A stretch of DNA of 64,000 nt, from the sequence record GQ981382; one strand, 5' to 3'. Positions within the stretch are counted from its first letter, which is position 1. Each line of letters begins with the position of its first letter. Source of the DNA: Shigella phage SP18. This document shows positions 1 through 8,182 of this stretch, piece by piece. The translations under genes and the position numbers were made by a program. The notes beneath the pieces are model-generated. The model had not been told where the DNA came from, ran no database searches, and saw only the letters and a program-made list of their open reading frames with translations.

Positions 1-200
1 GCACTAGCAACGAAGGTGCGACCAGCTTCTTCCCCATAACAAGAGCTGTTCAACCAGTCTTCAAGACGGACTTCGCCGTCATAATCATCAAGCTCAACAC
101 CAAAATCTTGAGCAGAAGCCATATCTTTTACTTTCTTATACAGTGCAGCCAGTTCAAGGGCGGCTTTTTCTAATTCAGCACGTTCAACAGCAGTAGTCAT
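1..200 (-). CDS. hypothetical small acidic protein, 5' part only (runs off the window start); contains an internal W-L-N-S-S-C motif resembling the C-terminal motif of the adjacent paralog array
   Basis: ATG at complement 198-200, 9 nt after the stop of the upstream gene (GGTGATAAA spacer); frame open to position 1; absent from ORF track because truncated. Confidence 0.4.
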   Translation of the reverse strand, partial: MTTAVERAELEKAALELAALYKKVKDMASAQDFGVELDDYDGEVRLEDWLNSSCYGEEAGRTFVAS

Positions 201-209
201 TTTATCACC

Positions 210-437
210 TTAGCAAGACATAGAGGAGTTAAACCAGAAACCTTTACCATCTGGGATACCGTAATCACCACGAATCCAGTCATACTCTTCGTATTCTGGA
301 CAACCCGCAGGAATATATCGTTGAAGACTGTCAGCATACACATGAAAGTATTCACCAGTTTTATCGGCCAGTTGTTCACCTTCACAGATTAGTGCACGGA
401 TTTGGTCTTCAATTTCTTTAACAGTTTTAGCAGTCAT
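210..437 (-). CDS. small protein, paralog A of tandem array; C-terminus G-F-W-F-N-S-S-M-S-C
   Basis: ORF track 75 aa; C-terminal motif shared with the next three genes; AAGGAAAT RBS context. Confidence 0.6.
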   Translation of the reverse strand: MTAKTVKEIEDQIRALICEGEQLADKTGEYFHVYADSLQRYIPAGCPEYEEYDWIRGDYGIPDGKGFWFNSSMSC

Positions 438-446
438 TTTATTTCC

Positions 447-644
447 TTAGCATTCATAAGAGGAGGACACCCAGGAGCCACCCGTAATTGTAATACAGCC
501 ATTGTAAATCGTGATATGACGGTCCAGATGGTTTTCACCTTCGATATAGATGTCGGCTTCTTCACGTTCTTCTTTACAAATCTGGATAACGTTTTCAATA
601 GCTGCCGCGGCAGTACGGATTGCACAATCTAATTCACGAGACAT
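447..644 (-). CDS. small protein, paralog B; C-terminus G-G-S-W-V-S-S-S-Y-E-C
   Basis: ORF track 65 aa; conserved C-terminal motif; 9-nt spacing to next gene. Confidence 0.6.
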   Translation of the reverse strand: MSRELDCAIRTAAAAIENVIQICKEEREEADIYIEGENHLDRHITIYNGCITITGGSWVSSSYEC

Positions 645-653
645 AATAATTCC

Positions 654-935
654 TTAACATTCAGAAGAGGAGGACACCCAACCACCTTTTTCCAGGTCAG
701 TTGTATAGTCATGAGTATTAACAATAGCCCATTCAGGATGACCATGTTCTTCCCAATGGGCAAGGTCTGCTTTCAGGGCGCCAGGAGAATAATAGTCACC
801 GCCCATACCGCGAGCAGGGTATATATTAAAATGAGTCTCATATTTGTCTGCAATTTCCTCGGCACGACGAATAGCTTTATGGATGTCATTTACTGCGTTA
901 GCCAGTTCTTTATTTTTACGGTAATCATTCATCAT
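654..935 (-). CDS. small protein, paralog C; C-terminus G-G-W-V-S-S-S-S-E-C
   Basis: ORF track 93 aa; EEIADKY helix motif plus conserved C-terminus. Confidence 0.6.
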   Translation of the reverse strand: MMNDYRKNKELANAVNDIHKAIRRAEEIADKYETHFNIYPARGMGGDYYSPGALKADLAHWEEHGHPEWAIVNTHDYTTDLEKGGWVSSSSEC

Positions 936-944
936 AACGTTTCC

Positions 945-1235
945 TTAGCACATTGCCGAAGAGGAGACCCAAGCACCAACTGTAACGACACCGTTTTCAA
1001 CTTCACCGCCGTTGTTTTCAATTTCATTTTTAAACCACTGGGAGCATTCATAACCGACAGGATAATATGTACGGCCCGAACCATAATCACCGGTACCAAA
1101 TTGGATACCATATTCATCTGCGATTTCTTCACAGTGTTTTTCAATTTCAGAGGTCTTATTTAGAAGAGAATAGATAGCTTTTTCTGCAGATTTCTCATCA
1201 TAATACTTGGGGATAGCAATTTCAATTTTATTCAT
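945..1235 (-). CDS. small protein, paralog D; C-terminus G-A-W-V-S-S-S-A-M-C
   Basis: ORF track 96 aa; EEIADEY motif plus conserved C-terminus; ATGA overlap with upstream gene. Confidence 0.6.
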   Translation of the reverse strand: MNKIEIAIPKYYDEKSAEKAIYSLLNKTSEIEKHCEEIADEYGIQFGTGDYGSGRTYYPVGYECSQWFKNEIENNGGEVENGVVTVGAWVSSSAMC

Positions 1236-1585
1236 GATTTACATTCCTTAATAAAGGTTTCAAGTTCATTGCGTTTTGTTTTGTCTAGGAACTTATTATA
1301 CTCAGCCATTGCTGAAGCATATCTCTTCCGACTAGGAGCATTCACGGCATTTGTGTGACAGATATCATACACAACAGGGATAAAATAAGACACAACAGCC
1401 GGAGCGATTATCATAAAGAAGCCCATCTCAATAGGCATCACTCCCTCGATTGCAGCCATAACCGTGGTCATTACCAGACCAACCAGGCCGCCAAGCATGG
1501 CGGTGACAATCCCTAATAATAAATTGGCACCAATATCATATTCAGCCAATTGATAAACATGTGATGCAAGACTAGGCCGTTCCAT
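1232..1585 (-). CDS. small membrane protein with two predicted transmembrane helices
   Basis: Internal ATG at complement 1583-1585 preceded by AAGGAGG; two hydrophobic stretches followed by a basic C-terminal tail. Confidence 0.55.
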   Translation of the reverse strand: MERPSLASHVYQLAEYDIGANLLLGIVTAMLGGLVGLVMTTVMAAIEGVMPIEMGFFMIIAPAVVSYFIPVVYDICHTNAVNAPSRKRYASAMAEYNKFLDKTKRNELETFIKECKS

Positions 1586-1931
1586 TACGAACCTCCTTAA
1601 TAAATTCTTCGGCGCATTTAATTTTGTGCTCTTCTTGTAGGGAAACACATTTTTGTTCCCACTCTTTAACTCGTCCACGATATCCTTTATTCATATGATT
1701 TTGATGCCACACATTTATCAATATCATACACAGGACCGTAATAAAAGGAGCTGCAATTACTAGCGTCCAGGCGACTCCAACACTAATGATATTCATATCC
1801 CCACAAAGCACCATCATTATAACCCCAACGATGCACATGGACAGAGCCCCAAATGGAGGCATAAGGTCTTTATCAATCTTGTCCGCGTACACAAATTTTT
1901 CTGGTTTACTTGGCAGATATAACGTTCGCAT
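1572..1931 (-). CDS. small membrane protein with two predicted transmembrane helices, similar architecture to the downstream gene
   Basis: ATG at complement 1929-1931 with AAAGGGG RBS; two hydrophobic segments; 14-nt overlap with next gene. Confidence 0.5.
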   Translation of the reverse strand: MRTLYLPSKPEKFVYADKIDKDLMPPFGALSMCIVGVIMMVLCGDMNIISVGVAWTLVIAAPFITVLCMILINVWHQNHMNKGYRGRVKEWEQKCVSLQEEHKIKCAEEFIKEVRNGTA

Positions 1932-2460
1932 TTTGAACCCCTTTAGCATATTCACGACATTCAGCAATAAAACGATTAAGCTTACGTTTCCGTTTACGAC
2001 TCTCTAATGTGTACTCAGCCGCCAAATCAAGAAGCTCATCTTTATCATAATTTTTAATATCAGTATAAGTTGGACGACGGTCAACCATTCCAAAGTGGTC
2101 ACCATTTTCTAACATCAAATAACATACCAAATGGTCATCATCATCCGCATTAATAAGTTGTTTATAATCGCTAGGGTCGTTTAAAGCATATACTGAATAA
2201 CTCAGCCCAGCGAATTCCACTCGTTGAATACCCAGATTTACGTCAATAATTTCCAGGGCATCTGTGAAAGAAAGGTCTTCAGCTAAAGCAAAAATAAAAG
2301 GCAATTTTGTAGTATCACCGCGGCTAGTTGTTCTTCTTAAGAAATCATTGGAATAACCCAAGTCACCGCGGATTCTATAAAGAACTGTGTTAGTTTCAGT
2401 GGCAAGACCACTACCGCCAAACCAGTCTACATTTGATAGAAGGTCAGTATATAAGCTCAT
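1906..2460 (-). CDS. hypothetical protein
   Basis: ATG at 2458-2460 with GGAGAGGAG RBS; 184 aa; preceded by GGGGGC-AAA-GCCCCC hairpin. Confidence 0.55.
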   Translation of the reverse strand: MSLYTDLLSNVDWFGGSGLATETNTVLYRIRGDLGYSNDFLRRTTSRGDTTKLPFIFALAEDLSFTDALEIIDVNLGIQRVEFAGLSYSVYALNDPSDYKQLINADDDDHLVCYLMLENGDHFGMVDRRPTYTDIKNYDKDELLDLAAEYTLESRKRKRKLNRFIAECREYAKGVQNANVISAK

Positions 2461-2478
2461 AATATTCTCCTCTCCCAA

Positions 2479-2503
2479 TTAGGGGGCAAAGCCCCCTTTT
2501 ATC
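2479..2503. terminator. intergenic hairpin GGGGGC-AAA-GCCCCC with T-run on plus side
   Basis: Perfect 6-bp GC stem between two minus-strand genes. Confidence 0.4.
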
Positions 2504-3097
2504 TTACTTAAGCGAATTGATATATTCTTCAATGTCAGCGGACGTGGTATCCACACCAACCTGTGGGCCTTTGAAGGTTTCAACACGCATCAGAGTGTCT
2601 TCAATATCAATCTTAGTCAATGCAGCGATTTCAACAACATCATCTGCGGTTGCAATACCCAGTGCAGACACCTTACGGGTTTCGCGGATGTATTCCAGTT
2701 TAACAGCTAGTTCCTGACGAGAGTCATCCAGCTCTTTAACTTTCAATTTAATTTCATTACGCATTTCAACATAATCATCTGCCTTCTTACGAAGTTGTTT
2801 AGCAGTGCGACGATACAGGAGACCCAGTTTAGCATGGACCTGGACATCTGCACCATCAGCAATCAGTTTTCGGATTTCACGCTCTTTTGAAGCGGCGAGC
2901 TGGTCTTTTTCATTCGCTAACTCGCGGATGCGTTTTTCTTCATTAACAGACTTAACGTGGGCAGTCTGGAGCTCAGTAATCTTATCAATCAGGGTAGAAG
3001 CAGCTTTAGTATATTGGTCTTCAATAGACAGGTTTTGCGCCATTGCAGTACCCAGTTTGGAGCGGATGAATTCAACAAGTTTCTTTAAAGTATTCAT
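2504..3097 (-). CDS. hypothetical coiled-coil protein
   Basis: 197-aa ORF, heptad-rich charged sequence; MotA-box type promoter upstream. Confidence 0.55.
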
Positions 3098-3133
3098 GGT
3101 ATTTCCTTCAGTTAGTTAATGTTTTATTATCCC

Positions 3134-3165
3134 GGGAACATACTATCATGTTCCCGTTAAAGCAC
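3134..3165 (-). promoter_or_regulatory. MotA-box-like promoter (GTGCTTTAA-N11-TAGTAT) with -10 inside inverted repeat GGGAACAT/ATGTTCCC, upstream of gene 2504-3097
   Basis: Box to -10 spacing 19 nt; 8-bp inverted repeat flanking the -10. Confidence 0.4.
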
Positions 3166-3169
3166 TAAT

Positions 3170-3475
3170 TTAGATTTTGTTTTCCTGCACACCATAATAA
3201 AGTTCATCAGACACAATATCCAGGATGCGGCGAACATATTCATCATGGTATTGACAGTCAAAATCAAATGTAACAGTAGTTTCCGCTTCACGAGTGAATT
3301 TAACTTGCACATTCAGGTGATTAACAACGTTAGTTAATTTATCAGTAAAGAACTCTTTTGCTACCGCCTGTTGGACTTGCACTTTGAACTTGGTGTTACG
3401 AATCATATTTTCAGCAGATGCGAAATTACCAGTTTTATCAAAGTCAACAAGCGCCATGTTGATGATGAATTTCAT
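3170..3475 (-). CDS. hypothetical protein
   Basis: 101-aa ORF; GGAGAATAAA-ATG RBS; early promoter repeat upstream. Confidence 0.55.
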   Translation of the reverse strand: MKFIINMALVDFDKTGNFASAENMIRNTKFKVQVQQAVAKEFFTDKLTNVVNHLNVQVKFTREAETTVTFDFDCQYHDEYVRRILDIVSDELYYGVQENKI

Positions 3476-3496
3476 TTTATTCTCCAGTGTTTTATT

Positions 3497-3545
3497 GTGT
3501 AACTCAGTATGGAATCATTATGCCTTAAAGCAGGGGGCTTGTATA
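3497..3545 (-). promoter_or_regulatory. sigma70-like early promoter repeat (-35 TATACA, 17 bp, -10 CATAAT, conserved leader GATTCCATACTGAGTTACAC); -35 lies in loop of the upstream terminator hairpin
   Basis: One of three near-identical 26-nt copies (3497, 4543, 41998). Confidence 0.5.
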
Positions 3546-3557
3546 CCCCCTTTTTGA
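3531..3557. terminator. hairpin GGGGG-CTTGTATA-CCCCC followed by TTTTT (plus side); overlaps early promoter -35
   Basis: GC stem plus T-run. Confidence 0.4.
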
Positions 3558-3558
3558 A

Positions 3559-4002
3559 TTAAATTTCAAATTCTTTGCGGAAGTTGGAAGCATAAGACTG
3601 AACTGATGCTTTGTTGAATCCAAACTCACGCACAATCATATCAATAACAGCCCTACGAGCGGCACCATTAGACATATTGACAGTTTTGAACATATCATAG
3701 CATAAATCTTTGTTGCTCATACCGGAGCGTTTAGGTGTCTTACGTTCAGTTTTTGGTTCAGTCTTAGGAGTAGGTTTAACTTCTGGTTTAACCTGTCCAT
3801 CATTCAGACCTTTAAAAATTTTACCTGCCAGAGTTGCCAGTTTAGCAGCTTCGCCACGAGTGATACCAAATACTGCCGGGTTAAATGAAATACCTTCAGC
3901 TGTCAGACGTTTAAAGAACATACGTGCGGCGGATTGTGCTTCAGCTTCAGAAGAGTTGTTTAATGCCAGTTTAACATACTTAACCAGTTTTGAAGTTTTC
4001 AT
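3559..4002 (-). CDS. hypothetical protein sharing a C-terminal domain (AARRAxID...VQSYASNFRK) with the upstream paralog
   Basis: Internal ATG at 4000-4002; C-terminal 45 aa alignable with gene 4086-4511. Confidence 0.55.
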   Translation of the reverse strand: MKTSKLVKYVKLALNNSSEAEAQSAARMFFKRLTAEGISFNPAVFGITRGEAAKLATLAGKIFKGLNDGQVKPEVKPTPKTEPKTERKTPKRSGMSNKDLCYDMFKTVNMSNGAARRAVIDMIVREFGFNKASVQSYASNFRKEFEI

Positions 4003-4037
4003 TTTATTATCCCGTTTGTTTATTTGGTAACTCAATA

Positions 4038-4073
4038 TGGGATAATTATACACTATCCCACCTGGAAGTAAAA
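4038..4073 (-). promoter_or_regulatory. early promoter variant with -10 TATAAT in loop of inverted repeat TGGGATA/TATCCCA; -35 TTTTAC
   Basis: Related to the TATCCCAT promoter family; upstream of gene 3559-4002. Confidence 0.45.
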
Positions 4074-4085
4074 CACTTTTCTCAA

Positions 4086-4511
4086 TTATTTTTGAGCTTT
4101 GCGGAAGTTGGATGCATATGACTGAACAACAGTCTTTTTGATATCATGGGTGGTAACCAGAACATCAATCAGAGCGCGACGAGCTGCATTATCATTCATA
4201 TCAATTTCTGAAAATGCCTGGAAGCAAATGTCACGAGCGTTACCAGATTTGGACTGGATTTTTTCTTCTTTAACTTCTTCAATTGGGAATTCAATCATTT
4301 CAGCTTGGATTAATTCAATGATAGATTCTTTTGACTGTTTGGTGTTTACCTTCAGTTCAGAATTAAGGGACTTGGCGATGGCAACAATCTGGGTTGAAGT
4401 CAGATGAATAAGTGCATCTTCACGAATGCAGATTTCACATACTTCGTCAGCAACCATTTTGTTGGTGATGCGGGTAACAGAGAATGCAGAGGTCAGGGTC
4501 AGGAAGTTCAT
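4086..4511 (-). CDS. hypothetical protein, paralog of 3559-4002
   Basis: ATG at 4509-4511 with GGAG RBS; C-terminal ...NAARRALIDVLV...VVQSYASNFRK. Confidence 0.55.
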   Translation of the reverse strand: MNFLTLTSAFSVTRITNKMVADEVCEICIREDALIHLTSTQIVAIAKSLNSELKVNTKQSKESIIELIQAEMIEFPIEEVKEEKIQSKSGNARDICFQAFSEIDMNDNAARRALIDVLVTTHDIKKTVVQSYASNFRKAQK

Positions 4512-4542
4512 TTTATTTCTCCAAAGTTTTGTTTGATTCAGT

Positions 4543-4591
4543 GTGTAACTCAGTATGGAATCATTATGCACCCGGTCAATTCGGATGTACA
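4543..4591 (-). promoter_or_regulatory. sigma70-like early promoter repeat (-35 TGTACA, 17 bp, -10 CATAAT, conserved leader)
   Basis: Immediately downstream of minus-strand terminator and upstream of gene 4086-4511. Confidence 0.5.
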
Positions 4592-4630
4592 CTACTTTTT
4601 GAAGAAAATTTCAAATTTATTCGGGGTATA

Positions 4631-4659
4631 AAAAAAGCCCCAACCTTTCGGAAGGGGCT
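4631..4659 (-). terminator. rho-independent terminator (AGCCCC-loop-GGGGCT then U7 on minus strand) downstream of tRNA region
   Basis: Stem 4636-4641/4654-4659, A-run 4631-4636 on plus. Confidence 0.6.
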
Positions 4660-4660
4660 A

Positions 4661-4860
4661 TACCTTGTCGGGGTTCCACCTGCAAGGCAAGTGTTTGTAC
4701 GAAACGCCGGGATTCGAACCCGGTTATTAAGCAGTTGACGCTACTCAATATTTTTAAAAGGCCATATCTCGACCATATCCGAACGTTCCGTCAAAAACGC
4801 TACTCGGCTTACGGCAAAGATATTTCCTCGAATCGATAATTCGGTGCGCCGTTTCAGCTG
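4661..4860 (-). ncRNA. candidate stable RNA with a perfect tRNA-like T-arm (CCGGG-TTCGAAT-CCCGG) that does not fold as a canonical tRNA
   Basis: No ORF over about 300 nt between tRNA cluster and terminator; T-arm at complement 4704-4720; possible acceptor-like pairing CGGAACG/CGTTTCG. Confidence 0.3.
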
Positions 4861-4960
4861 TGAGATAAGGGACTTTAAGAGGTCAACTCATGTACGCCTT
4901 AAAGTCGGGTCTTATTCAGGGAACTTCAGTCCGACGACTTACCGGTAGCGACCCGGTTTC

Positions 4961-5200
4961 TCATTCAATTGTAATAGCTAATTTGACTTTAACAACCTTA
5001 TAATTGGAATCAAGGTCATTGAATTCCATAAAATTTGTTGCTAATCTGCGAGTCGGGAAACTTAGATATTTATTATGCTCAGGTGGAGCAGTTAATGCAA
5101 ACCATGGGACTTGTTTATCATTTTCATCAAACTCATCAAAGCTATAAACCAGCTCGTTGCTGGTTATATCCATAACTGCATATGATTCACTAATAACCAT
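4961..5200 (-). CDS. hypothetical protein
   Basis: ORF track 79 aa immediately downstream of tRNA cluster. Confidence 0.45.
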   Translation of the reverse strand: MVISESYAVMDITSNELVYSFDEFDENDKQVPWFALTAPPEHNKYLSFPTRRLATNFMEFNDLDSNYKVVKVKLAITIE

Positions 5201-5215
5201 AATATCCTCAGTAAT

Positions 5216-5291
5216 TGGTCGAGACAGTAGGGATCGAACCTACGACCTAGGACTTAGAAGGTCCTTGCTCTTCCTTCTGAGCTATGCCTCG
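5216..5291 (-). tRNA. tRNA-Arg (anticodon UCU), CCA encoded
   Basis: Manual cloverleaf: acceptor CGAGGCA/TGTCTCG, D-stem GCTC/GAGC, anticodon stem AGGAC/GTCCT with loop CTTCTAA, T-arm GTAGG-TTCGATC-CCTAC. Confidence 0.8.
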
Positions 5292-5298
5292 TAATTTG

Positions 5299-5370
5299 CG
5301 GACACACATGGATTCGAACCATGGACCAATTGATTAACAGTCAACTGCTCTACCACTGAGCTATGCATCC
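5299..5370 (-). tRNA. tRNA-Asn (anticodon GUU), CCA not encoded
   Basis: Manual cloverleaf: D-arm GCTC-AGTGGTA-GAGC, anticodon loop CTGTTAA, T-arm CATGG-TTCGAAT-CCATG, acceptor with two G-U pairs. Confidence 0.75.
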
Positions 5371-5374
5371 AAAT

Positions 5375-5449
5375 TGGTGGCCCTTGCTGGTTTCGATCCA
5401 GCTACCTATCAGTTATGAGCTGACAGCTCTCCCATTGAGCTAAAGGGCC
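5375..5449 (-). tRNA. tRNA with CAU anticodon (Met or Ile2), CCA encoded
   Basis: Manual cloverleaf: acceptor GGCCCTT/AAGGGCC, D-arm GCTC-AATGGGA-GAGC, anticodon loop CTCATAA, T-arm GCTGG-ATCGAAA-CCAGC. Confidence 0.75.
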
Positions 5450-5542
5450 AATTCTATTATGAAAGGCTCTTTGAGGGAAGAACCTTTGGTAATAGAGGGT
5501 ACTTATTAATAATAACACATAACTCTTAAAGCATATTACTTG

Positions 5543-5944
5543 TTAACCTTCATCAACAATAGTATGTGTATTGGCATTGACAATCTGCCACCAGTCAAAA
5601 CGGTTGGAACCATAACAAGGCTTCTTCTCGTTTTCTTTAATGATAACGCGCAGTTCATCTTCAGTCGCAGCCTTTGCGATTAAGTCAGCATAACCGCCAC
5701 GAGGATAATAGCTATCACCCGCGAACAAAAGGAAATTTACCTTCCCAGAAGGGATATAGGCTTCCTTTGGATACTTGTTTCCTGCATGGTCTACCACTTC
5801 AATATAACGATAAGGAATATCAGTATTTTCAATCCATTGCCACGCCGCGGCAGGAGAATCAAAAGCATCTACACCTAAACGGTTATCTTCATCTTTAGAC
5901 GGGTTATTTTCATAATCCGCATATACATAATATTCAACGTTCAT
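5543..5944 (-). CDS. hypothetical protein
   Basis: ORF track 133 aa; TAATG overlap with upstream small ORF. Confidence 0.5.
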   Translation of the reverse strand: MNVEYYVYADYENNPSKDEDNRLGVDAFDSPAAAWQWIENTDIPYRYIEVVDHAGNKYPKEAYIPSGKVNFLLFAGDSYYPRGGYADLIAKAATEDELRVIIKENEKKPCYGSNRFDWWQIVNANTHTIVDEG

Positions 5945-6063
5945 TATTCACCTTTAGAGATTTTATCCATAACGAAAGAGATTGAACCAATTAAAAATGC
6001 AACTACTAAAGAGATTATATTCTCAGAAGTTGAAAGCATATTCAACATAAAGCCAGCAAACAT
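5944..6063 (-). CDS. small hydrophobic peptide (39 aa), possibly the 3' part of a gene split by a frameshift from the 21-aa ORF at 6065-6130
   Basis: ATG at 6061-6063 without RBS; upstream tiny ORF 6065-6130 has a strong GAGGAG RBS and ends in a T-run. Confidence 0.3.
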   Translation of the reverse strand: MFAGFMLNMLSTSENIISLVVAFLIGSISFVMDKISKGE

Positions 6064-7101: not shown

Positions 7102-7434
7102 TTATTTATAAAGTTTTGCCAGTTCTTTACGTCCACGAGCAGACATAATAAATTGTTCATCGCCAATTTTAAAATAAGCCATACCACCGTCAACAGCGAT
7201 ACCAATTTCTTTAGTACCTTCTTTGCCTTTCCACTTGCCACCAGATTTCAGGACAGCTTCAACTGCAGCTTTGGAATATTTGGACGTTTGAAAACGTTCA
7301 TTACCAATCTGAAAGAAAACACCATCTGCATTTTTGGTTAAACCAAATTTCAGAGAGCCTTCACTATCATCAATTGATTTGGTCTCATTGATGGCGGATT
7401 CGGCTAAAAACTCGTTGTAAGTTTTGACGCTCAT
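7102..7434 (-). CDS. internal protein (IP) family member, N-terminus MSVKTYNEFLAE
   Basis: Internal ATG 11 codons into the track ORF; CTS-like N-terminus with L-x-E cleavage context. Confidence 0.6.
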   Translation of the reverse strand: MSVKTYNEFLAESAINETKSIDDSEGSLKFGLTKNADGVFFQIGNERFQTSKYSKAAVEAVLKSGGKWKGKEGTKEIGIAVDGGMAYFKIGDEQFIMSARGRKELAKLYK

Positions 7435-7494
7435 TTTAACTCCGTTTGTTCGTTGGTGTAGGAACATATTACTGCACCTACACTCATTTGTACA

Positions 7495-8182
<688 letters not shown>

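Follow-up and report, generated by a model that had tools for sequence, protein, structure and literature searches.

Tandem genes for small Cys-tailed proteins in Shigella phage SP18 and their genetic linkage to a putative nucleotidyltransferase-like protein

Why should a phage encode, one after another, small proteins with variable bodies and the same extreme C-terminus? The question was raised by the first 1235 nucleotides (nt) of a 64,000-nt stretch of the genome of Shigella phage SP18 (GQ981382; this whole stretch is called "the window"). Here, four consecutive minus-strand genes encode proteins of 65–96 amino acids (aa) ending in W-[VF]-[SN]-S-S-x-x-C, as a preliminary description of this DNA had reported and as the sequence and the listing of its open reading frames (ORFs) bore out; a fifth related gene is cut by the window edge. 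The small proteins would be dedicated partners of an enzyme-like protein (domains DUF7277 and DUF7275) whose gene follows shortly downstream in the same orientation. Array and partner gene appear to form a new, conserved and uncharacterised two-component phage module with a small-protein fold that has no known relative; its function we infer from genomic context.

A protein of 300–320 aa with DUF7277 and DUF7275 domains was encoded just downstream of Cys-tailed genes in Escherichia phage P896, in RB69 and in the unrelated 366-kb Erwinia phage Kaldavass. In the source phage this partner gene lies approximately 1.1–2 kb to the left of window position 1 (145159–146118 in P896), outside the left edge, and is therefore not visible in the window sequence. 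When viral contigs were scanned with the DUF7277-DUF7275 protein as the sole query, 80 loci were obtained, from T4-like phages of Escherichia, Klebsiella, Enterobacter, Aeromonas and Acinetobacter, from jumbo phages of 350–390 kb and from phages of 100–150 kb. These loci were diverse: the identity of the enzyme-like protein went down to about 38%, and its N-terminal domains fell into 37 groups below roughly 60% positional identity. A hidden Markov model (HMM) of the small-protein family detected one to five members in 70 of the 80 loci. The ten negative loci were inspected, and seven of them held diverged members (ending, for example, in NWDSSTC, WMSSSANC or WAGSSC), two had incomplete upstream DNA and one was a true negative. 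Cys-tailed genes, one to six per locus, were present in 77 loci, all but one of the 78 whose upstream DNA was intact. All 165 HMM hits shared the strand of the partner gene and 163 were located upstream of it; the member nearest to the start of the partner gene was at a median distance of 424 nt, and within 1.5 kb in 76 of 77 loci. Clustering of the same-strand ORFs from the 80 loci recovered the Cys-tail family in 75 of them (by BLAST) vs. 29 at most for any other neighbour.

The reverse test, in which loci were picked by the tail DNA motif alone, gave the same picture. All 27 loci corresponded to true members, and each of the 26 evaluable contigs had the partner gene downstream in the same orientation; 15 control loci from a mis-specified motif (one codon short) held neither gene. 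The same pairing was seen in Xanthomonas phage X1, Pseudomonas phage phiPsa374 and Acinetobacter phage Apostate. We are highly confident that the linkage between the small proteins and the partner gene is near-obligate in both directions. The PHROG and Pfam entries and the searchable literature recorded no Cys tail and no pairing of these families, and literature searches on the identifiers (DUF and PHROG), on the names of the RB69 ORFs and on phage nucleotidyltransferases, AMPylation and anti-defence brought no relevant paper.

The array proteins matched PHROG 899 and PHROG 4882 in HMM comparisons, both annotated as of unknown function. Scans of the small proteins against Pfam, NCBIfam and PADLOC gave nothing credible, and the sole hits in PDB profile searches were coiled-coil and designed-helix noise confined to the N-terminal helix; the database check proposed in the preliminary description turned up no well-characterised family in any of these five resources. 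A first profile, built from the four complete paralogs of the window and searched against 1.8 billion cluster representatives, retrieved 19 representatives of 72–97 aa, of which 16 ended in W-x-[SAN]-S-[ST]-x-x-C, one had an extra residue before the Cys and two had one residue after it. A wider profile retrieved 50 clusters, all of them in phage genomes or phage-sized contigs, and a word-indexed protein search with one paralog retrieved close orthologs only. The family is large, phage-restricted and made up of small acidic α/β proteins (60–110 aa; isoelectric point, pI, 4.0–5.4, median 4.45); longer members, of 130–170 aa, had no recognisable additional domain. The bodies share approximately 24% mean identity. 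One Trp, one Ser and the terminal Cys were the invariant columns. Near-invariance extended to a Gly, to two further Ser and, within the motif (Y)G-x-G-x-x-Y-x-P, to a Phe and a Tyr.

Tail statistics were obtained from 149 distinct members. The terminal Cys was present in 144, with Ser at position -4 in 129 and at -3 in 119 of these 144. The Trp was at -7 in 121 members, at -5 in 15 and at -8 in 7, and 63 of the 149 had no Cys other than the terminal one. A minority of members were of a double-motif type, with an internal W-x-x-S-S-C-Y-G in addition to the terminal motif. Serial tail motifs of this kind (W-x-S-S-x-C-Y-G followed by W-x-S-S-S-x-x-C) were observed in unrelated members: at 7432–7677 of locus L064, at 3929–4174 of L132, in member P0021, and at window 1–200 with 4967–5200 of L002. 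The internal copy always precedes an aromatic residue and a Gly or Asp.

All the array genes of the window are on the minus strand, and the paralogs are 20–29% identical to one another. Paralog 1 (945–1235; 96 aa, pI about 4.7) ends in GAWVSSSAMC, paralog 2 (654–935; 93 aa) in GGWVSSSSEC with the terminal Cys as its sole Cys, paralog 3 (447–644; 65 aa, the shortest type) in GSWVSSSYEC, and paralog 4 (210–437; 75 aa) in GFWFNSSMSC. PHROG 899 was matched across the array with E-values of 5e-23 (paralog 1), 1.9e-20, 3.5e-15 (paralog 4) and, for the fifth, truncated gene, 1.9e-6; paralog 3 matched PHROG 4882 (E=3.3e-36). The family HMM gave E=5.5e-25 for paralog 1 and 3.2e-14 for paralog 3. The N-termini are MNKIEIAIPK, MMNDYRKNKE, MSRELDCAIR and MTAKTVKEIE. 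The acidic helix EEIADKY/EEIADEY and the Gly/Tyr-rich middle that had been described as shared are present in the sequences, as is the WLNSSC inside the fifth gene (paralog 5; 1–200), which the window edge cuts after its first 66 codons. The full-length ortholog of paralog 5 in P896 (98% identical DNA) is 77 aa long and additionally ends in WYPSSC. Judged by these motifs, paralog 5 is a double-motif member of the family, and its orthologs were present in 29 of the 80 loci selected with the partner protein.

The partner protein belongs to PHROG 2141 and combines an N-terminal DUF7277 domain (Pfam PF23942) with a C-terminal DUF7275 domain (PF23940), all annotated as of unknown function. Its family ranges from coliphages to jumbo phages and actinophages, with at least 2,790 clusters (90% identity) and 730 phage records, none of them functionally named. 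In 28 diverse homologs, the N-terminal domain keeps the pattern h-h-h-G-S-x-A...D-x-D-h, with G6, S7, D25 and D27 invariant, as well as a conserved acidic residue near position 69, in a later strand; the G-S...D-x-D motif was visible in nearly all of the 80 loci. Pol β-type nucleotidyltransferases are marked by the signature hG[GS] x9-20 Dh[DE]h with a third carboxylate in a following strand, and from this short motif the partner is predicted to be nucleotidyltransferase-like; two deposited genomes annotate it as a "putative nucleotidyltransferase". The C-terminal domain of the same 28 homologs has approximately 40 invariant residues, including K125, H128, H174, H194, D195, H198, E240, E241, E248 and R249, and an invariant block K-V-C-T-S-I-T-S-G-W-F-R-E. 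One stretch of this domain gave weak HEPN-type matches (PADLOC CARF_HEPN, E=0.014; the KEN domain of RNase L, E=0.28), which are a lead and not a result.

The Cys within the KVCTS[IV]TSG block was kept in all 80 main-clade enzymes. It was absent from all five members of a distant clade of shorter proteins (about 250–265 aa) from Streptomyces, Gordonia and Mycobacterium phages and from Vibrio phages K408 and PG216 (L086 3378–4468, L087 3309–4393, L088 3312–4444, L089 3318–4479 and L133 2306–3363): four of these carry [TS]ITSLTK at this place, and the PG216 protein has no recognisable motif there. No Cys-tailed neighbour was found at any of the five loci, where the enzyme genes adjoin that of a different conserved protein of about 100–120 aa ending in ...(E)VKPVQK.IT.Y. 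Since the distant clade has a small neighbour of its own, the logic of an enzyme plus a dedicated small protein would be general. The Cys of the partner protein and that of the small-protein tail appear and disappear together, a correlation which suggests that the two are joined in thiol chemistry, at a shared metal site or by a thioester.

A structure was predicted with AlphaFold2 for paralog 2. With an alignment of 61 sequences, the model reached a mean predicted local distance difference test (pLDDT) of 92.3 and a predicted template modelling (pTM) score of 0.79; the alignment was needed for this confidence, the single-sequence prediction being poor (pLDDT 50.6). The model has a helix (residues 9–32), a β-hairpin (35–41/44–49), two further helices (51–63 and 71–74), a strand (84–87, GGWV) and a terminal turn (89–92). 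The hairpin carries GMGGDYY, and the Gly-rich motif of the family is its turn. The last three residues (91–93) averaged a pLDDT of only about 50. This α/β fold, a helix with a three-stranded sheet, had no match among solved structures. The Phe, Tyr and Trp conserved in the family map to the three strands of the model, where they seem to have a structural role; this would leave S-S-x-x-C-COOH as the exposed and functionally suspicious part.

These results are consistent with a "handle-and-payload" arrangement, in which the highly conserved enzyme would recognise the common tail on every paralog and would probably modify it covalently, either by nucleotidyl transfer to an invariant Ser hydroxyl or through chemistry on the terminal Cys. 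The variable middle (approximately residues 50–83 of the model) may give each paralog a specificity of its own, for example for different host targets, and the pair may serve in host takeover or counter-defence, expressed before the late phase. The preliminary description had read the tail as a shared targeting, processing or modification signal of the kind seen on injected or anti-host effectors. The part concerning recognition or modification gains strong indirect support from the near-obligate DUF7277-DUF7275 linkage across unrelated phages, whereas the injected-effector part was not supported (see below). It is an even call whether the conserved tail is the docking or modification site of the enzyme, and any specific chemistry is considerably less probable than that. 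Physical interaction, tail modification, nucleotidyl-transfer chemistry and biological role are, like the function of the pair as a whole, proposed from genomic context. As a tentative possibility, the pair may be an unrecognised system of protein modification or conjugation, widespread in phages, in which a nucleotidyltransferase-like enzyme with a catalytic Cys nucleotidylylates, loads or ligates the tails and so arms or directs the paralogs against different host targets.

The partnership turns two families of "hypothetical proteins" into one testable system. Should the tail be covalently modified or serve in conjugation, viruses would possess a new protein-tagging chemistry, and under the modification/conjugation reading the Cys-tailed proteins would be a new class of carriers or modifiers alongside the Gly-Gly and Pup types. 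The diversified paralogs would then, if the tail is modified, be a ready panel of specificities, probably directed against host proteins or defences, with relevance for the host range of therapeutic T4-like phages.

Several results weigh against the proposal that the partner is a nucleotidyltransferase acting on the tails. Profile searches of the PDB with the partner protein, both full length and with the N-terminal domain, returned no nucleotidyltransferase, and searches against NCBIfam and PADLOC were non-significant. A direct hhalign comparison with a manually entered sequence of kanamycin nucleotidyltransferase (KNTase) was not significant either, and in Pfam only one of the 28 homologs had a weak match to a nucleotidyltransferase DUF (DUF6036, E=0.053). 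The T4-like contig L029 (IMGVR_UViG_650627040_000001) carries the partner gene and no detectable Cys-tailed ORF, its closest relatives (L030, L032 and L033) each carrying two Cys-tailed genes. In the source phage, four unrelated small genes separate the array from the partner gene, so that the two are not strictly adjacent. Finally, the internal copy of the motif in some members (WLNSSC-YG...) implies that a free carboxylate is not required for every copy.

Among the other explanations, the small proteins might be antitoxin-like inhibitors or regulators, which would bind the enzyme through the tail and restrain or time a potentially toxic activity instead of being its substrates or adaptors. 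We consider this unlikely. The characters of type II antitoxins of the Phd/YefM/RelB kind, namely structural similarity to the Phd/YefM N-terminal domain and an adjacent known toxin, were not found.

For the proposed tail modification, near analogies among known systems are MntA-HepT (MNT-HEPN) and GlnD-PII, in which an enzyme of the nucleotidyltransferase fold nucleotidylylates its own small partner protein. The partner protein resembles these enzymes in having hG[GS]...DxD followed by a putative helical domain, and in the coupling of its gene to those of small proteins. The likeness extends to the conserved hydroxyls offered by the small proteins (Ser at -4 and -3, and the near-invariant Tyr of the Gly-rich hairpin) and to the HEPN-type hints in the C-terminal domain of the partner. 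However, the partner had no significant match to any MNT, GlnD or KNTase protein, and the small proteins matched no HEPN or PII model, lack the Rx4-6H motif and have a different fold. The several diversified partners per enzyme and the C-terminal Cys also have no counterpart in those systems.

A role of the small proteins as carriers or modifiers, in which the enzyme would activate their C-terminus or load the terminal Cys and a group or a whole protein would then be passed on (as in conjugation, sulfur relay, or cofactor or peptide maturation of the type known from ribosomally synthesised and post-translationally modified peptides, RiPPs), is distinctly unlikely. Ubiquitin-like, ThiS/MoaD and Pup modifiers, as well as swinging-arm Cys carriers of the HypE type, are characterised by two traits in common, an invariant residue at the extreme C-terminus and a linked enzyme dedicated to it: in ubiquitin/ThiS/MoaD-E1, Pup-PafA and HypE, small proteins with an invariant last residue are encoded beside the enzyme that acts on them. 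That almost every family member ends exactly in Cys speaks for this role as well, as does the invariant Cys of the partner enzyme, an additional feature with respect to those systems, which is lost together with the Cys-tailed partners in the distant clade. Against it, the fold is a helix with a three-stranded sheet and not a β-grasp, without any structural relative, and a terminal Cys stands where those modifiers have Gly-Gly or Glu. Pfam scans of the enzyme gave no E1/ThiF, PP-loop, radical-SAM or YcaO signature, and it lacks any E1, PafA or PurM-like domain. No acceptor or downstream enzyme was conserved in the neighbourhood. As for RiPPs, a variable folded body with a conserved 8-residue tail is the reverse of their precursors, which have a conserved leader and a variable core, and no RiPP-type enzyme (radical-SAM, LanB/C/M, YcaO or similar) was present in the neighbourhood clusters.

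It is very unlikely that the small proteins are independent anti-host effectors, for instance acidic mimics of DNA or protein, whose tail would serve their own folding, metal binding or stability while the enzyme is merely co-located in an accessory island. Their acidity, small size and position in an early/middle accessory region rich in unknown genes form a profile typical of phage anti-defence proteins. They resemble the T-even anti-defence arrays (Arn, Ocr-like DNA mimics, tifA amplifications) in being small, acidic, tandem paralogs in the accessory region between e and the tRNA genes, and share the acidity of the DNA mimics Ocr, ArdA and Arn. However, the small proteins had no similarity to any solved protein and no sequence or structural similarity to known anti-defence proteins, and the array differs from those arrays in its old conserved order and in being tied to the partner gene. 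The synteny is maintained across lineages without any other common neighbour, with both genes in one orientation throughout and, rare exceptions apart, no more than 1.5 kb between them, and the reverse test found the partner gene in every evaluable contig; passive co-location explains neither this synteny nor the joint loss of both Cys in the distant clade.

It is barely credible, given the results set out in the following two paragraphs, that the conservation lies at the nucleotide level, in a ribosome-binding site or regulatory RNA (largely refuted), or that the tail is a capsid-packaging signal of injected internal proteins.

The nucleotide-level explanation draws on the layout of the junctions. 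Each gap in the array is of exactly 9 nt between the stop and the next ATG (TAA-GGAAACGTT/GGAATTATT/GGAAATAAA/GGTGATAAA-ATG), in agreement with the spacing given in the preliminary description, and because only these 9 nt are available the Shine-Dalgarno sequence (AAGGA/AAGGT) overlaps the preceding TAA stop. Last tail codons, TAA, overlapping Shine-Dalgarno, 9-nt spacer and next ATG make up a 42-nt direct repeat, present in four copies on the minus strand (195–236, 432–473, 639–680 and 930–971) with 64–86% identity. The layout suits translational coupling; at the upstream end, the start of paralog 1 overlaps the stop of the e.3-like gene (ATGA, 1232–1235). This junction was the sole nucleotide-level repeat at the array, and a scan of window positions 1–1300 matched no Rfam family. 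The ratio of nonsynonymous to synonymous substitutions (dN/dS), with respect to orthologs in related phages, was 0.06–0.34 for the four complete genes (0.06–0.25, 0.10–0.34, 0.12–0.19 and 0.13–0.15 for paralogs 1 to 4, respectively), and the genes are under purifying selection and therefore translated. Among paralogs as among orthologs, the tail codons vary synonymously (GTC/GTG, TCC/TCT/TCG, TGC/TGT) but encode unchanged residues, and the same peptide tail occurs in unrelated phages despite different junction DNA. The tail motif was found in just 4 of the 588 window ORFs of at least 30 aa, and these four adjoin each other, a clustering which is not due to chance. Selection on the peptide tail, and not merely on the overlapping ribosome-binding site, had been suggested from the codon differences; the dN/dS values, the synonymous changes and the statistics of the 149 tails confirm it. 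An untranslated regulatory RNA element is excluded by dN/dS, motif count, junction-only repeat and the Rfam result.

The packaging explanation is favoured by internal-protein genes a few kb upstream in related phages. T4 internal proteins carry an N-terminal capsid-targeting sequence (about 10 aa, of the type MKTYQEFIxE, cleaved by the prohead protease) and are expressed late. Such a sequence (MKTYQEFI..E type) was visible on internal-protein-like ORFs of related loci but was absent from the array proteins, and no T4 late promoter TATAAATA was found in window 1–6000. A site resembling a middle promoter with a MotA box (minus strand, 1295–1321; box TATGCTTCA, 12 nt, TATAAT) preceded the first array ATG by 86 nt and fell within the 3' end of the e.3-like gene; it is a consensus match only, within coding sequence. 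About 0.01 matches would be expected by chance per 6-kb strand (an estimate, not a computed value), and the site was also present at -86 in 6 of 9 close relatives. This site and the lack of a late promoter within 6 kb point to pre-late expression. The array genes appear to be expressed before the late phase, which would fit host takeover or counter-defence rather than a role in the virion. For these reasons the analogy with injected or packaged effectors drawn in the preliminary description was not supported.

The window belongs to a Gaprivervirus (Tevenvirinae), a T4-like coliphage. Its first 3 kb were 98.4% identical to P896, the closest relative, and 90–96% identical to VR20, VR25 and VR26; these four phages are of the same genus. 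The array is located between the lysozyme gene e and the tRNA genes, directly downstream of homologs of T4 e.6, e.5, e.4 and e.3 (window 1232–3097). The family HMM found no member in the 15-kb syntenic region of T4, and T4 e.2, considered as a possible homolog, was rejected as an unrelated membrane protein; the earlier opinion that this is not a described T4 family stands. The paralog types and their order (96-aa, 93-aa, 65-aa, 75-aa and double-motif type) were kept across genera, in Gaprivervirus, Dhakavirus, Mosigvirus and the T4-like phages of Klebsiella, Enterobacter and Edwardsiella, indicating that the array is made up of old, subfunctionalised genes. A recent "accordion" amplification was rejected on the same grounds and from the low identity between paralogs, and the conserved types and order also contradict a recent hypervariable expansion.

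In RB69, paralog 1 is split into ORF139c and ORF138c (3679–3985 of L004), of 71 aa and 33 aa, the latter ending in GAWVSSPALC. The relative phiE142 has one intact gene of 101 aa at this place, and the RB69 split is a frameshift or a sequencing error.

In the neighbourhood of the partner gene, 16 loci (L040 and 15 others from jumbo phages; 7624–8403 in L005) had a calcineurin-like (NinI-like) Ser/Thr phosphatase gene a few genes downstream of the one for the DUF7275 protein. The wider neighbourhood in Kaldavass included genes for an RNA ligase, a polynucleotide kinase and a DNA ligase.

The e.3-like and e.4-like genes directly upstream of the array (window 1232–1678 and 1572–1967, minus strand) encode two predicted membrane proteins, which cross-match each other's PHROG families (2330 and 2604), suggesting an older pair of paralogs. 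At window 2481–2497, where 25 nt separate the e.6-like from the e.5-like gene, there was a perfect GC-rich palindrome, AGGGGGCAAAGCCCCCT, which was terminator-like in a scan of the plus strand; a similar palindrome was present at 3532–3551. Three tRNA genes were found at window 5216–5449 (minus strand), for Arg(tct), Asn(gtt) and Met(cat). The annotation of P896 lists only the Arg and Met tRNAs at the corresponding place; the tRNA content may differ between the two near-identical phages, or the Asn tRNA may have been left unannotated.

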